48,121 bases of DNA from Candidatus Zixiibacteriota bacterium (GTDB lineage: Bacteria > Zixibacteria > MSB-5A5 > GN15 > FEB-12): the NCBI GenBank assembly GCA_041742355.1, contig JBGSIV010000077.1:1-48121 (forward strand). The letters are read 5' to 3'. The position numbers were made by a program, and so were the translations under genes. Position 1 is the stretch's first letter. Every line of letters starts with the position of its first letter. Shown here piece by piece: positions 1 through 13,994 of this stretch. The notes below the pieces were generated by a model that ran no database searches, was not told where the DNA came from, and saw nothing but the letters and a program-made list of their open reading frames with translations.

Positions 1-2754
<2,754 letters not shown>

Positions 2755-2853
2755 AAAAGCCTTACCTAAGAGCATCCATTTGTCACCTTACGTGACACAG
2801 CCAATTGGAAGATACGTTTTTTCCGTATCAACCCGGGTCGTCAAATCTATGAA

Positions 2854-2866
2854 GTTGTCAAAGAGC
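2854..2866 (-). promoter_or_regulatory. boxA antitermination site in the 16S-23S spacer
   Basis: Minus strand TGCTCTTTGACAAC, matching the rrn boxA consensus, between tRNA-Ala and 23S. Confidence 0.8.
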
Positions 2867-2924
2867 AGGTTGCCCTGGAGGGCAACTTATCTAATACAAA
2901 ACAAGAATTCGTAAGTTCCAAAAT

Positions 2925-2997
2925 TGGAGATGACCGGGATCGAACCGGCGACCTGTGGCTTGCAAAGCCACCGCTCTCCCAACTGAGCTACATCCCC
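2925..2997 (-). tRNA. tRNA-Ala(TGC)
   Basis: GGGGATGTAGCTCAGTTGGGAGAGCG-GTGGC-TTTGCAA-GCCAC-AGGTCGCCGGTTCGATCCCGGTCATCTCCA folds as a cloverleaf with anticodon TGC. CCA is not encoded. Confidence 0.97.
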
Positions 2998-3022
2998 GAA
3001 ACCAAAACCGTTTTTTTCACAC

Positions 3023-3096
3023 TGGGCCTAGATGGAGTTGAACCATCGACCTCGCGCTTATCAGGCGCGCGCTCTAACCAACTGAGCTATAGGCCC
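3023..3096 (-). tRNA. tRNA-Ile(GAT)
   Basis: GGGCCTATAGCTCAGTTGGTTAGAGCG-CGCGC-CTGATAA-GCGCG-AGGTCGATGGTTCAACTCCATCTAGGCCCA, anticodon GAT. CCA is not encoded. Confidence 0.97.
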
Positions 3097-3236
3097 GTTA
3101 AGCTCGTTTACGCGCCTGATGGCGACGTTGTTTTATCACGTAAATAGTCATCGGGAAGTCCAGGAGGGGTAGACGGCGTGCCGGTCGACCTTGGAACGGC
3201 ACCGCGCTTGCGCGCGACGCTCGCACCATTCTCCTT

Positions 3237-4789
<1,553 letters not shown>

Positions 4790-4956
4790 AATATTAAAAT
4801 CATTGTAATCGAGTTTAAATCCGTCAGTCCGAACAGCACATTCCGAGGAATGTATTGTTCTGGATTCAAGAATTTAGGGTTCCTGAAACCGGCGAACCGA
4901 TCTCAGGACAGCGACATCGTCGCCTTCCCGCTCCTGAACTTTCCGATGACTATTTA

Positions 4957-4970
4957 GTTGTCAAAGAACG
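4957..4970 (-). promoter_or_regulatory. boxA antitermination site in the rrn leader
   Basis: Minus strand CGTTCTTTGACAAC just downstream of the proximal rrn promoter, nearly identical to the spacer boxA. Confidence 0.75.
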
Positions 4971-5011
4971 TTGTGCGAAAAAAATCTGCCAGCTTTGTCC
5001 GGCAGACCCCG

Positions 5012-5040
5012 ATAATACCAGATCGCCGTTTCTTTGTCAA
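5012..5040 (-). promoter_or_regulatory. rrn promoter, proximal (sigma70-like)
   Basis: TTGACA-N17-TATTAT with a TG extended -10 and an A-rich UP-like tract upstream. Confidence 0.8.
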
Positions 5041-9129: not shown

Positions 9130-9714
9130 CTATCCGATGACTGCCCTCTCCCGCTGACGGTCGACGTCCACCGACTTCTTCGGCAGAAGTGTCAGAAACA
9201 GCCCTACTCCGAAGAGTAATATCCCCAGCCCGCTTTGCGCGTAGTCGTTCCAGCGCGGCTCGGGCATAATAGTGGAGCGGTTAGGATCTCCCGGATCATA
9301 GTACACCGTCACCGGTGTCCCGGGCGGAAAGCCCGCGATCTCCTTCTCGGCCACTTCCATGTTGCGCCGTTTGTTTCCGAACAACGGCACATTCCGATCG
9401 CTGATCCCTGAGTACCGTCGCCCGTTGAGAGTAAACTCGTAAGTGATCCTGGGCGCAAACGACCGTTCACCGGTGATAATCGACGACGCAATGACTCCGT
9501 CGACGGTGGGCCAGTCCCTCCGCTCGAACCGCTCGGCCAATCGATCAAAGGCGCTGACCGCCAGAACCACACCAGCCACTCCGCCGGCGATTCCCAGAAG
9601 CAGCAGCCCGGTCCGTTTAGCCGGCAAGGCTATCCGGCGCAGCGATAGCCGGAGTCCGACCACCAGGGCCGCGGTCGCCGCGAGTATCCAAACAATCAGT
9701 ACCATACAATGCAC
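9130..9714 (-). CDS. DUF3592-like membrane protein
   Basis: TM helices flank 'WPTVDGVI..S', 'PRITYEF..NGRRYSG', 'PPGTPVTVYYDPGDP..S'. Exact start uncertain. Confidence 0.75.
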   Translation of the reverse strand: MHCMVLIVWILAATAALVVGLRLSLRRIALPAKRTGLLLLGIAGGVAGVVLAVSAFDRLAERFERRDWPTVDGVIASSIITGERSFAPRITYEFTLNGRRYSGISDRNVPLFGNKRRNMEVAEKEIAGFPPGTPVTVYYDPGDPNRSTIMPEPRWNDYAQSGLGILLFGVGLFLTLLPKKSVDVDRQRERAVIG

Positions 9715-10159: not shown

Positions 10160-10942
10160 TCATTGCCGTGCAGGCAAGCTACCTGGCTCCCGCCACTGGC
10201 TGTAACAGCCATCCCTCAGGATCGCAACCGACGGATAAGCGTCAAGCTGGGCGGCGAAGCAGACGTCGTCGCGAAAGCCGATGTCACAGAGCTCCCGGCC
10301 ACTTATCGATCCGAGCAGGGCATCCTCCAACCGTCGGCGCAGGTGCAGGAATGTGCCCTCCGCAACTTCGGCTTCAGGTGCCTTCACACAATCAAGCGCG
10401 GCGATAATCGCACCTGCTCCGATGAGATCTTCGGCGGCGAATCGCAGCAACGGACCGGTGGCGCCTGGCTCCTGCTCTCCACAGGCCACGACGGTAACCT
10501 TCCGTTTCGCATCAACCTGCATTAACTTCCGCAACGCCTCCGCAGTCGCCCCGGCATTGACCAGGCCGGCAGCCACAACAACAGGCGCAGCCGAAGCTGC
10601 GAGCGTACACGCTCCGCCGTTTACTGCCCGGAGTACGACACGCGTGCCCGGTGAAATGCCGAGGTAGGTGAGCGGAGACAGGGAGAATCGACCGCGCGCA
10701 GGGACTTCGCCGCGAGCGACCGCCGCCTGACCGTTGACGCACGCAGCCATCTCGGCAGCTTCATCGTATGAGGCGCAGGGGTACATCTGAGCGCCGTACG
10801 TGACCGCGGTCGCAACCGAAGTTCCGAAGCTCAGCGTGTCGACGATGACGACAATCTCCCCTCTCTCAGCCGCTGCCGCAGCCCCGGCAGGCCCCCACGC
10901 CAGAGTGCACTGGGCCACAGTCAAATCGCCTTGCGGACCCAT
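10160..10942 (-). CDS. comB: 2-phosphosulfolactate phosphatase family protein
   Basis: 'VVIVDTLSF.TS', 'FSLSP', 'NGG', 'VVACGE', 'RFAAEDLIGAGAII', 'SISGREL...GF.DDV..AAQLD' are ComB family motifs. SD GAGGAG. Confidence 0.85.
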   Translation of the reverse strand: MGPQGDLTVAQCTLAWGPAGAAAAAERGEIVVIVDTLSFGTSVATAVTYGAQMYPCASYDEAAEMAACVNGQAAVARGEVPARGRFSLSPLTYLGISPGTRVVLRAVNGGACTLAASAAPVVVAAGLVNAGATAEALRKLMQVDAKRKVTVVACGEQEPGATGPLLRFAAEDLIGAGAIIAALDCVKAPEAEVAEGTFLHLRRRLEDALLGSISGRELCDIGFRDDVCFAAQLDAYPSVAILRDGCYSQWREPGSLPARQ

Positions 10943-11026: not shown

Positions 11027-13159
11027 TCACTGTGTCGCGACTGAGGCACCGGCCCGTTGGCAGAGGGTATTGAGAACCGCCAGCAGCCCCTCGGGTGGCT
11101 GCGTGCATTCGACCGGCAGAAGTTCATACATACGGCCGCAAAGGTCCTGCGCCAGTCCTGTATCGCCCTCTTCGATCCGCGCCGCGATGAGCGTGCCGAA
11201 CGAATTGTACAGCAACTGCGCGTACCACGCGCTTGGCGGCTCTAGCGGCACTGACGGGTGATCGAACCCGCGGACGATGTAGACATCAGTCAGATTTCGC
11301 TCGAGCACCCCGACGTCAATCGGTGGATTCTGCACCGGAAGAACACGGGTCACCAGGCCCTCGGGACGCCGAAAGGGCTGTAACCAGGGGAGCTGGTCGG
11401 GCCCGAGCGAAGCCACCGTGTACAGTGGGCGTTCCCATCGGAGCTTCTCCACGAGGCGGAGGACCACATAGTCCTGCGGCAGAAGGTAAGCATCCGCCGC
11501 AGTCGGCTGAATCGAAATTCCTATCTCGTCTGTGGCCTGGGCGGAATCCAAGGCGGCTGAGCCCGCCTGGCCCACCACCTGGACCATCACCACAGTATCA
11601 TGCCAGGGCACGACCGGAATCTGCGTCAGTTCCTCATCGGTGAAGTCCAGTCTGAGCCCTGGATCACGTCGCTGCCATTGACGTACGAACCACCCCGTGT
11701 TCAGCAGGGGAATATTCAGCACGGTCACATCGGTTCGAACGCCCTCAACCGCCTGAAGGTACCATAGTGGAAAAGTGTCGTTGTCGCCTGTGGTGAGAAG
11801 CACGGCGTCGGGTTCCAGCCCGGCGAGCATATTGGCGGCATAGTCGCGTGCAAACGAGCGGGTTGAGCCGTCGATATCGGCATAGTAGTTTAAGCCATGA
11901 TTGATCGGAACCGCCAGAAGAAGAAGCAGGGCAATCACGCTCCCGATGCGACCGATTAGTCCGCCGAGCTTGAGCAACCTCTGCAAAACCGTTACCGCTC
12001 CAAACACGACGAAGACACCGAAAATGACCAATGAGGGAAGGTAGTGCCGGTGCAGTGAGCGGAAGTAATTCTCCGGAATATTGAAGTAGACAATGGCCGC
12101 GGCCACGGTCATCATAAACAGAATGCCGGCGGCGATGCCAAGCCGCGGAGAACGACGAGTCATAACCGCGAGACCCAATATCCCGGCCGCCAACGGGACG
12201 ACTCCCACAACGCTCAGCGGGCCATCTGTGGAAACAAACGTCTGCCCGAACGCGGCCAGCCAGTCGGCGACCTGCACATTCCAGAAGTCGGCGTTGCGAG
12301 GGTACAGGTTTACGAGGAACCCGCCGCCACGCATCTTGAGGAAGAAGTAGTCCCAGAAGCGTCCGATTGTACTGGGATCGCCGATGTTCATGAACGGCTC
12401 GCGGGCCGCCATAAACATGATCACTCCATGGAATGACAGCCCCAGAAACAACCCCAACGCACTGATCCTCCAGGTCTTCCACTGAAGCAGCGCTCGGGGA
12501 TTCCCGAGAGCGATCCATACTGCCAGACCCGGCATTAGAAGAGCATTCGTGCGGTGGACAGACACGTCGAGGCCAAACAAGAGCATTGTGACGAAGAGCC
12601 AGCGGATTCCGCCGGTCGATCTCGCACTCTCCCACCACTTCAGCATGGCAAAGAGGATGAAGACGGTGAAGACGGGCGTTACCACGTAAGTCGTGTACTG
12701 CACCGCGTAGAACCACAGGGCTTCGCCAAAACCGAGCGATAATGCCGCGCCGACGGCACCAAGCCACAGAAAGAGGCTGCCTCCGCTCCATCGTTCCCCG
12801 GCAGTGAGCCCTTGGAGCCGGTTCGCAAGCAGCAGCACACCTGCGGTCACAAACCCGGCGAGTACACCGGCAAACAGGTTCAGCGTGAGGATATCGGCGG
12901 TCGCGGGTACAAGATGGACAACGAGCCAGCCAAGAATAGTGGATATGAGTCCCCCCGGCGCCGACATTACGCCGAGGTCGTGAGCAGCCAGGGCCTCTTC
13001 GGCATTATTCCACCAAGCGATGGTTCGATAGGCTGTCAGGTAGTAGACCGCGAACGCAGCCGCAAAGGTCAGCCCTGCTGCCACCAAAGGAAGCCGCCGG
13101 GGCGATGTGGCGTCGCGAGAAAGGCTCGACGTGGAACCAGCGGATGACAGGACACGCAT
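11027..13159 (-). CDS. DUF2723 / TMEM260-like protein O-mannosyltransferase-family membrane protein
   Basis: 'VYYLTAYRTIAWW', 'LGVMSAPG', many TMs, 'LLTTGDNDTFPLWYLQAVEGVRTDVTVLNIPLLNTGWF'. SD GGAGGT precedes the ATG at 13159. Confidence 0.85.
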   Translation of the reverse strand: MRVLSSAGSTSSLSRDATSPRRLPLVAAGLTFAAAFAVYYLTAYRTIAWWNNAEEALAAHDLGVMSAPGGLISTILGWLVVHLVPATADILTLNLFAGVLAGFVTAGVLLLANRLQGLTAGERWSGGSLFLWLGAVGAALSLGFGEALWFYAVQYTTYVVTPVFTVFILFAMLKWWESARSTGGIRWLFVTMLLFGLDVSVHRTNALLMPGLAVWIALGNPRALLQWKTWRISALGLFLGLSFHGVIMFMAAREPFMNIGDPSTIGRFWDYFFLKMRGGGFLVNLYPRNADFWNVQVADWLAAFGQTFVSTDGPLSVVGVVPLAAGILGLAVMTRRSPRLGIAAGILFMMTVAAAIVYFNIPENYFRSLHRHYLPSLVIFGVFVVFGAVTVLQRLLKLGGLIGRIGSVIALLLLLAVPINHGLNYYADIDGSTRSFARDYAANMLAGLEPDAVLLTTGDNDTFPLWYLQAVEGVRTDVTVLNIPLLNTGWFVRQWQRRDPGLRLDFTDEELTQIPVVPWHDTVVMVQVVGQAGSAALDSAQATDEIGISIQPTAADAYLLPQDYVVLRLVEKLRWERPLYTVASLGPDQLPWLQPFRRPEGLVTRVLPVQNPPIDVGVLERNLTDVYIVRGFDHPSVPLEPPSAWYAQLLYNSFGTLIAARIEEGDTGLAQDLCGRMYELLPVECTQPPEGLLAVLNTLCQRAGASVATQ

Positions 13160-13260
13160 GACGCACCTCCCCAGTGTCAAAGGTGTTGGTTCAGCTGATG
13201 AGCGATCTTCCGGTTTATGTTAGTTGGTCCACGATACACGGGCAAGCTGATTTTGCCCGC

Positions 13261-13290
13261 AAAAAACACCCCTCGGGATAAGCCGAGGGG
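13261..13290 (-). terminator. Intrinsic terminator
   Basis: CCCCTCGG-CTTATC-CCGAGGGG stem-loop followed by TGTTTTTT on the minus strand. Confidence 0.8.
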
Positions 13291-13393
13291 CTGTAACTTA
13301 AGTTAACTTGTTCGGAAGGTGCCGCTACATGTGTCGCATCACGCGGCGGGGTCGGGATCCGTCCCCGGAAACCCCTGTAGATCGGACTTCCTG
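13261..13393 (-). ncRNA. Candidate small structured RNA or riboswitch-like leader (unassigned family)
   Basis: Lies between a consensus promoter and an intrinsic terminator with no ORF. Nested pairings GGAAG/CTTCC, CTACA/TGTAG, GGGGT/ACCCC, GGGA/TCCC, CGC/GCG. Confidence 0.6.
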
Positions 13394-13398
13394 ACTAT

Positions 13399-13427
13399 AG
13401 AATAGTCGCTCGCCTCCACTTTGTCAA
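13399..13427 (-). promoter_or_regulatory. sigma70-like promoter for the candidate sRNA
   Basis: TTGACA-N17-TATTCT. The -10 is overlapped by the inverted repeat GACTAT-N3-ATAGTC (13393-13407). Confidence 0.75.
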
Positions 13428-13467
13428 GCGAAAAGTGGACTTGGGGCATCGTTTTCGCATTCGTCTT

Positions 13468-13746
13468 TCAGCTCTGCCGACTATCGAGAATTCGCCGATC
13501 GGTCAAGATTGACCAGACAAATGATGGCCCTCCGCTTAGGGCCGCTATCTTCCCGGTCGAAGCGCCGTGGACCTGCGCGAAATATCGAGCCAATTCCCTG
13601 CGGCTGATGGAGATATCCGAATGGCTCGGACGAACCCGATCGCCGTCGACAATTTCATAGCGGAAGGCCAGACCCGCTTGTGTTTGAAACTGCTCGCCGG
13701 CGTGCTCGACAATCCGCTCCCAGATTTGATCAAACGGTGTGCTCAT
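13468..13746 (-). CDS. Small hypothetical protein (92 aa)
   Basis: SD GAGGGG before MSTPFDQIWERIVEHAGEQFQT..G..F.Y; 'GPSFVWSILTDRRI' looks like a genuine small globular protein. Confidence 0.7.
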   Translation of the reverse strand: MSTPFDQIWERIVEHAGEQFQTQAGLAFRYEIVDGDRVRPSHSDISISRRELARYFAQVHGASTGKIAALSGGPSFVWSILTDRRILDSRQS

Positions 13747-13994
13747 ACGTTCCCCTCGACAAGTCAATTCGGACCGATACGCTCTCCGACCGCTGACAGC
13801 CAACCGCAGGTGAGTTCGACTGGCGTGCGCCCGATTACAGTGCTTCACCAGTAGGTACTCGCACAGTCCGTGAAACGCAATCATTTTTTTGCAGCCGAGA
13901 CTCCCTTCGGAGTCCGGCAGAAACCACTTGACACAACCCTCCGGCAGACGCTACTTAGGAGCGTAACGCAACTCATTCAGGCAGGGCTGAAACC

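Follow-up and report, generated by a model that had tools for sequence, protein, structure and literature searches.

The stretch of DNA analyzed here, hereafter the window, comprises 48,121 nucleotides from a member of the Zixibacteria, an uncultured phylum. On its minus strand, a promoter-like sequence, a series of inverted repeats and a G+C-rich hairpin with a T run precede a gene for a TMEM260-like/DUF2723 protein (PF11028), which lies 79-100 nt downstream. A first-pass annotation had proposed either an unannotated small RNA or a riboswitch or attenuator controlling the DUF2723 gene. The locus raises the question whether it encodes an RNA gene of its own or the leader of its neighbor and, in the former case, in which way such an RNA would act.

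Predicted transcript at the window locus

The features of the locus are listed below; percentages of paired cells refer to the alignment of homologs described in the following section.

13399-13427, minus strand: sigma-70-type promoter TTGACA-17-TATTCT with a T-rich stretch immediately upstream; 10 of 12 consensus matches
13261-13392, minus strand: predicted transcript of about 130 nt, its start taken from the promoter geometry and its end, at the end of the U tract, from the terminator
13387-13391, minus strand: 5' strand of helix P1, GGAAG, partner of 13314-13318; 97.9% of cells paired, changes on both sides in 4 of 4 modeled pairs
13314-13318, minus strand: 3' strand of P1, CUUCC, seen in the sequence reading, the fold and the alignment
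13376-13385, minus strand: 5' strand of helix P1b, conserved CCG (13385-13383) and window-specific extension CUACA (13380-13376)
13321-13329, minus strand: 3' strand of P1b, UGUAG (13329-13325) and CGG (13323-13321)
13348-13375, minus strand: helix P2, GGGGU/ACCCC, with a variable distal hairpin (13367-13353); base 90% paired
13333-13347, minus strand: hairpin P3, GCCGC-GUGAU-GCGAC, abutting P2 directly; highest sequence conservation in the RNA
13292-13313, minus strand: AU-rich single-stranded linker of about 22 nt, without pairs in the MFE or the centroid fold
13261-13291, minus strand: intrinsic terminator, a 9-bp stem (13291-13268, 7 G-C pairs) with a 6-nt loop and a GU6 tail

The promoter (13427-13399), the helices GGAAG/CTTCC, CTACA/TGTAG and GGGGT/ACCCC with the inner GGGA-CGGA-TCCC hairpin, and the terminator, in which the stem is followed by T6, all lie where the first-pass annotation had placed them. 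Promoter-like sites occur at 2 per 1.2 kb in a promoter scan, as compared to 0.5 expected from shuffled sequences. The covariance model introduced below matches the locus over its full length (13259-13395, 127 bits). The claimed lack of an open reading frame was confirmed, as no frame of at least 40 aa was found on the minus strand within the element; short frames starting from a 5' AUG are present in some homologous copies, where they are of unequal length, and the window copy has no such AUG. Taken alone, the window RNA folds with an MFE of -49.7 kcal/mol (z = -2.17), and 4 of 200 shuffled sequences fold equally well. As this is only modestly better than the shuffles, the single sequence proves little, and the real support for the structure comes from its homologs.

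Rfam 15 (4227 models) contains no family that matches the window locus at gathering score. When positions 13150-13480 were searched at E<=10, only anti-hemB (16 bits, on the terminator part) and PreQ1-III (12 bits) appeared, both of which are noise, and a search of 12 homologous loci at E<=1 returned nothing except an unrelated tRNA. The likeness of the RNA ends to the ykkC family, which the first-pass annotation had suggested, could not be substantiated, since no ykkC-type family appeared in this region even at E<=10. The reported absence of an SRP motif is in line with the lack of a match to RF00169 at the locus; the SRP RNA of this genome is encoded on another contig (74.9 bits).

Conservation of the RNA and of its transcription unit

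A BLASTN search of 61 genomes (60 relatives and the window's own) revealed homologs in three relatives, all of which agree with the window in -35 box, fold and terminator. A covariance model built from these four sequences (R1) found full-length matches in 61 of the 108 genomes of the family. Forty loci were fetched, yielding 48 true copies, which together with one spurious reverse-strand match to a terminator make up a 49-row alignment; 13 copies added later bring the set to 61. In the 49-row alignment, 94.9% of the pair cells hold standard pairs, compared with 77.7% after shuffling and 42-55% in the slid controls. Compensatory changes are found in 25 of the 29 pairs, and the observed values were reached by none of 500 shuffles. 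Double changes occur in 4 of 4 pairs of the P1b CCG/CGG helix (94.4% of cells paired), in 5 of 5 pairs of the P2 distal hairpin, which varies in length and sequence, and in 8 of 9 pairs of the terminator helix (98% of cells paired).

These covariation counts come from an alignment that was fitted to the covariance model, and each copy was therefore also folded separately. The alignment-free MFE folds of the single sequences contain P1 and P1b in 44 of 48 copies each, P2 in 33, P3 in 38 and the terminator in 47, with a mean folding z of -4.3 over the 48 copies. A structure-blind MAFFT alignment of 42 of the 48 copies, evaluated with RNAalifold, recovered only P3 and the terminator; P1, P1b and P2 are lost there because the P2 insert, being variable, throws the 5' half out of register. 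Thus, homologs were found as well as covariation, and the window RNA is one member of a conserved structured RNA family with covariation in every helix.

The common fold differs in some details from that read from the window alone. The 5' domain of about 78 nt consists of P1, P1b, P2 and P3. Throughout the family, P1 comprises 4-5 bp at the extreme 5' end and is followed by a small internal loop, often with CAA on its 3' side. P1b has the form CCCG/CGGG with an extension by a C-G and a U-A pair in about 70% of the copies; the CTACA/TGTAG helix of the first-pass annotation does pair in the window but is not the family-wide form, in which CCG/CGG is the conserved part, usually with this extension. 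A variable joining strand of 4-6 nt leads from P1b to P2, which combines GGGG/CCCC with the variable distal hairpin. The small hairpin described as CGC-GTGAT-GCG is present but is in fact a 5-bp stem, GYCRC-N5-GYGRC, often with a C.A mismatch. Its outer G-C pair is kept in 42 of 48 copies, and its second pair is C-G in 19, U-A in 9 and unpaired in 19, mostly as C.A; among the middle pairs, one is C-G in all 48 copies and one is G-C in 25 and A-U in 19. The junction is completed by a purine-rich strand of 7-9 nt.

The loops are variable, whereas the junction helices are nearly invariant in sequence, and by information per column the junction core is conserved above the AU-rich linker. Across the family, the linker shows a loose ACA..UAU..AUCAAG-UUU motif, which is kept in two families of the order (f1 and f3), and its commonest 5-mer, AAGTT, is present in 17 of 48 copies. 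The linker had been described as AU-rich and self-complementary; it is AU-rich, but it is unpaired in the folds and the palindromes of the window are not conserved.

An exact TTGACA lies upstream of 54 of the 61 copies, and a -35/-10 pair with a spacer of 16-18 nt is likewise present in 54. In consensus the promoter reads CTTGACAAAATG...CGATATT, preceded by A/T-rich sequence. Since P1 begins 7-8 nt past the -10 hexamer, the 5' end of the RNA is predicted in or next to P1. At the other end, 51 of 61 copies have a run of at least four T residues in the tail. TTGACA-17-TATTAT serves as the promoter of the window's rRNA operon, so that this type of promoter is in use in the organism. This operon (1-5040, minus strand) runs off the start of the window and comprises a 23S gene whose 3' end is cut (1-2754), two spacer tRNA genes (2925-2997 and 3023-3096) and a 16S gene (3239-4789); its promoter at 5040-5012 carries a TG before the -10 box. 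A strict CTTGACA[AT]-N14-17-[GT]ATA[TC]T motif has only 7 sites in the 4.37-Mb genome. Some of these, such as C20:24086 (minus), C191:22485 (plus) and C150:1200 (plus), precede hairpin-rich sequence and could mark further small RNA genes. Short inverted repeats that are specific to the respective copy, such as CGTCA...TGACG and GACCT...AGGTC, occur in promoter spacers (e.g., L008, L014, L019, L028); they adjoin a conserved AAAATG after the -35 box and could be a regulator site or due to chance.

The suggestion of an unannotated small RNA is borne out by the conservation of promoter, fold and terminator as one unit in 61 copies without an Rfam family. As is generally expected for small RNA genes, promoter and terminator are co-conserved, the structure covaries and there is no conserved open reading frame. 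Judged from these sequence features, the locus appears to constitute an independent gene, equipped with a promoter and a terminator, whose product would be a structured non-coding RNA with predicted ends and a length of about 130 nt.

Distribution and neighboring genes

With a second covariance model (R2) and a threshold of E<=1e-7, the RNA was detected in 67 of the 151 genomes of the window's order. By family, these are 55 of 98 genomes in f1, 8 of 14 in f3, 3 of 33 in f4 and none of 5 in f2; carriers belong to 34 of 77 genera and include 52 of the 110 high-quality genomes of the order. None of 67 sampled genomes from other families of the phylum contains the RNA, and all strong matches in the 151-genome phylum sample fall within the window's order. 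In the genomes sampled, the RNA family is thus confined to one order of the Zixibacteria. The genomes without a detectable copy, roughly half of those sampled from the order, include some that are rated 100% complete, so that the RNA is either dispensable or diverged in them. Weak model matches of 29-36 bits in other families of the phylum were discarded, because the 11 that were fetched are terminators only, without promoter or core. Two of the false weak matches from other families (L200 201-325, plus; L206 201-325, minus) share a different element, GGGAGTGGTG ... CCACCACTCCC, with a C-rich stretch before the terminator, which may be another structured RNA.

Most carriers have a single copy, and 5 of the 67 carry two. 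Second and tandem copies are common among regulatory RNAs. In one genus, two copies that have diverged from each other stand in tandem, separated by about 50 nt and each equipped with promoter and terminator (L008 2501-2822; likewise L010, L011 and L012). One genome of the window's genus has a second copy (L031 2064-2202) between the DUF2723 gene and an immediately following DUF3592 gene; DUF2723 is thus flanked by the two copies. A pattern scan of all species genomes gave at least 121 matches, and among the 80 matches listed, 12 are true copies (at least 50 bits with model R2); the remaining matches listed are chance hits in G+C-rich genomes. Among the matches listed, the records of the 12 true copies are titled Candidatus Zixiibacteriota (8), "bacterium" (2) and "uncultured Ignavibacteriales" (2). 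The latter titles (L100, L117, "uncultured Ignavibacteriales bacterium") may be imprecise labels, as the other named carriers are all Candidatus Zixiibacteriota.

A riboswitch or other cis-regulatory leader would be expected to precede, in the same orientation, a functionally coherent set of genes. DUF2723 adjoins the RNA in only 6 of 44 loci compared, namely the window and 5 of 43 others from two genera, and at one of these loci the RNA is a second copy behind the gene. According to a crude ORF call, the nearest downstream ORF has the orientation of the RNA in 31 of 48 copies and is convergent in 17, with at least 13 of the convergent ones supported by Pfam (PAP2, PMT_2/TPR, AhpC-TSA, amine oxidase, PfkB and others). 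The downstream genes on the same strand belong to unrelated families, including DUF2723, 2-phosphosulfolactate phosphatase-like proteins, PMT_2/TPR, SSF, MFS, hydrolases, cupin and CpeT, and the next gene is usually 60-400 nt away. Homologs are therefore not found upstream of consistent gene classes, and the varying neighbors together with the convergent arrangements leave a dedicated riboswitch or attenuator unsupported.

In the window, the gene order is aminotransferase, 138-aa protein, RNA, DUF2723, 2-phosphosulfolactate-phosphatase-like protein and DUF3592 (9169-9687, 10160-10942, 13468-13884, all minus strand). The 138-aa protein beside the RNA has no Pfam match and is conserved in the window's genus. 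Because parts of this order recur in other genera without DUF2723, the DUF2723 gene seems to have been inserted between the RNA and neighbors of longer standing.

Among the neighbors, a DUF3592 gene recurs most often: it follows the RNA in the same orientation in 13 of 60 copies, which represent about seven genera. The window has its DUF3592 gene 3.6 kb downstream, separated from the RNA by DUF2723 and a ComB-like gene. In one genus (L028, L034, L214), DUF3592 starts about 15-20 nt after the terminator, and the U tract is interrupted (UUGAUUUU, UUCAAUUUU, UCAAAUUUU). Given this short distance from a weakened U tract, read-through probably matters in that genus, which suggests that DUF3592 is co-transcribed with the RNA there. 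A functional link between the RNA and DUF3592 was nevertheless rejected, as the two do not co-occur: among 151 genomes, 33 have both, 34 only the RNA, 35 only DUF3592 and 49 neither, as expected for independent distribution.

These observations bear on the proposal that the RNA is a cis-acting leader, riboswitch or attenuator, the junction of which would sense a ligand or protein and thereby set the read-through into DUF2723 in the window and into DUF3592 in the ancestral arrangement. Its layout of promoter, aptamer-like junction with conserved core, and terminator would suit this role, as would the same-strand position of most downstream ORFs and the recurrence of DUF3592, which in the one genus has no space for a separate promoter. 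At the window locus, the scan detected no strong promoter in the 100 nt between terminator and DUF2723, and terminator read-through may feed DUF2723 there. The convergent ORFs, the unrelated same-strand families, the usual gap lengths and the independence of RNA and DUF3592 all argue against the proposal. Furthermore, no conserved anti-terminator was seen by eye in the alignment, and the AU-rich linker is not complementary to the G+C-rich terminator. A cis-acting leader is accordingly considered quite unlikely; as far as gene order can tell, the family is not a dedicated cis-regulator, and its link to DUF2723 is one of local synteny.

Possible modes of action and comparison with known RNAs

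The proteins that commonly assist small RNAs were searched for in the respective genomes. Hfq (PF17209) was detected neither in the window's own genome (93.8% complete) nor in 5 relatives, while it was matched in 5 control genomes, and ProQ was not found in the own genome. This genome encodes one CsrA (L217) and four single-RRM proteins (L218-L221) in frames of about 98-128 aa. CsrA and four RRM proteins, with neither Hfq nor ProQ found, make up a repertoire of RNA-binding proteins similar to that in other lineages lacking Hfq.

A trans-acting RNA that is recognized through its three-way-junction core by a conserved partner, probably a protein, is tentatively favored here. The RNA would be transcribed from its own promoter, end at its terminator after about 130 nt and act in trans, not as a switch for the adjoining gene. 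Its nearly invariant junction core would be the functional center and would be bound by the conserved partner, most probably a protein, and linker and terminator would form a module for single-stranded contacts or for stability, on which RRM-type proteins possibly act. The RNA would work without Hfq. This proposal agrees with the conservation of the core above the linker, with the lack of a tie to one neighbor and with the second or tandem copies, each with promoter and terminator, in 5 of 67 carriers. Several points weigh against it: the preference for a protein over base pairing derives only from the pattern of conservation, and the loose linker motif that is kept across two families could be a seed. 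In addition, about half of the order has no detectable copy, and the recurrence of DUF3592 (13 of 60 copies), with its close start in one genus, fits a cis role there. The covariation, moreover, was counted on the model-fitted alignment, and structure-blind MAFFT recovers only P3 and the terminator.

A related idea is that of a stand-alone sensor, a trans-acting "orphan aptamer" in which the invariant junction core would bind a small molecule or a global regulatory protein. This is regarded as unlikely; if true, it would represent a new class of riboregulators in a phylum in which Hfq, ProQ and a recognizable 6S RNA were not found.

Alternatively, the RNA could be a trans-acting base-pairing sRNA. 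In this case pairing near mRNA starts would fall to the AU-rich linker or to some other unpaired segment, the 5' domain would merely stabilize the molecule, and pairing would be independent of Hfq, perhaps with the help of RRM proteins. RRM-type proteins perhaps help sRNAs in other Hfq-less bacteria, and four such proteins are encoded here. The architecture of a structured 5' end, an AU-rich single strand and a terminator is typical of base-pairing sRNAs, the loose motif ACAUAU..AUCAAAG-UUU persists in f1 and f3, and multiple copies including tandem paralogs would also fit. The base-pairing seed, however, is normally the most conserved stretch of an sRNA, while the linker is the least conserved part of this RNA (commonest 5-mer in 17 of 48 copies), and near-invariant sequences of the junction helices would be needless for a mere stabilizer. 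Prediction of duplexes between the linker and 14,507 crudely defined start regions in the own genome with RNAduplex gave no convincing outlier, the top candidates being long interrupted duplexes. BLASTN-short of the RNA against the own genome detected complementarity of at most 13-15 nt (best E 0.42). Neither Hfq nor ProQ was found. Base pairing is therefore rated as possible but less probable than recognition of the core. Further occurrences of the core motif were also sought: the 4.37-Mb genome contains 5, which is chance level, and no promoter-like flank is visible in the sequence around them.

A further possibility is a housekeeping or global protein-sequestering RNA in unrecognizable form, either a 6S-like polymerase decoy or a CsrA sponge. 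Such a role would be in keeping with the very strong and conserved promoter of the rRNA type, with the presence of a CsrA gene and with the silence of the Rfam 6S model (RF00013) in the own genome and 5 relatives. This silence is weak evidence, since the model matched only 5 of 14 control genomes, and a search with 6S-Flavo (RF01685) is uninformative, as that model matched none of the control genomes. A short three-way junction with a tail is not the 160-200 nt rod with a central bubble of 6S RNA. Repeated GGA loops as in CsrB/RsmZ-type RNAs were not found; there is a single GGA loop, in P2, which only the window's genus and one further genus have, and elsewhere this loop varies. The RNA was also not found in about half of the order, complete genomes included, which is unlike a housekeeping RNA. 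Taken together, a disguised 6S or Csr-type RNA is highly improbable. The remaining probability falls to some other function.

Recognition of the junction core in trans thus stays the preferred working model. Irrespective of its mode of action, the locus represents an uncatalogued, clade-specific structured small RNA gene and a well-supported addition to the structured RNAs, given that the family has 61 copies, that all of its helices covary and that its promoter equals that of the rRNA operon in quality. Within the full texts that were searched, no paper on non-coding RNAs of Zixibacteria was found. For RNA-based regulation in this lineage, in which neither Hfq nor ProQ was found, the family provides a concrete starting point, and the junction, being conserved in sequence, lends itself to structure probing, ligand screens and protein pull-downs. 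At the same time, a dedicated riboswitch for DUF2723 glycosyltransferases has been removed as a false lead.

Among known systems, the ykkC/guanidine-I riboswitch (RF00442) shares with the RNA the order of promoter, junction with conserved core, and terminator and, in the window, a same-strand gene that follows after about 100 nt. It differs in that the RNA matches no riboswitch model at E<=10, has no coherent set of downstream genes, faces a convergent ORF in 17 of 48 copies and has no conserved anti-terminator that could be seen by eye. The resemblance to 6S RNA consists in a single, strongly promoted and conserved non-coding RNA in genomes without a recognized 6S RNA. A three-way junction of about 130 nt in all with a single-stranded linker in place of the 160-200 nt rod with its central bubble, and the patchy presence of the RNA within the order, set the two apart.

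The Hfq-binding module of sRNAs consists of an AU-rich stretch, a terminator hairpin and a U tail. Like Hfq-type sRNAs, the RNA ends in an A/U-rich stretch that runs straight into a G+C-rich terminator and its U tail; unlike them, it occurs in a genome in which no gene for Hfq or ProQ was found, and its 5 relatives likewise yielded no Hfq gene. The "Gene; sRNA" class of Rfam holds orphan structured sRNA genes that were recognized by comparative genomics in uncultured or little-studied phyla and for which a function is lacking. The RNA described here differs from these in having no match in Rfam 15 and in its compact three-way junction with sequence-conserved helices. It resembles them in its own promoter and intrinsic terminator, the absence of an ORF, strong covariation, restriction to one clade and variable neighbors.
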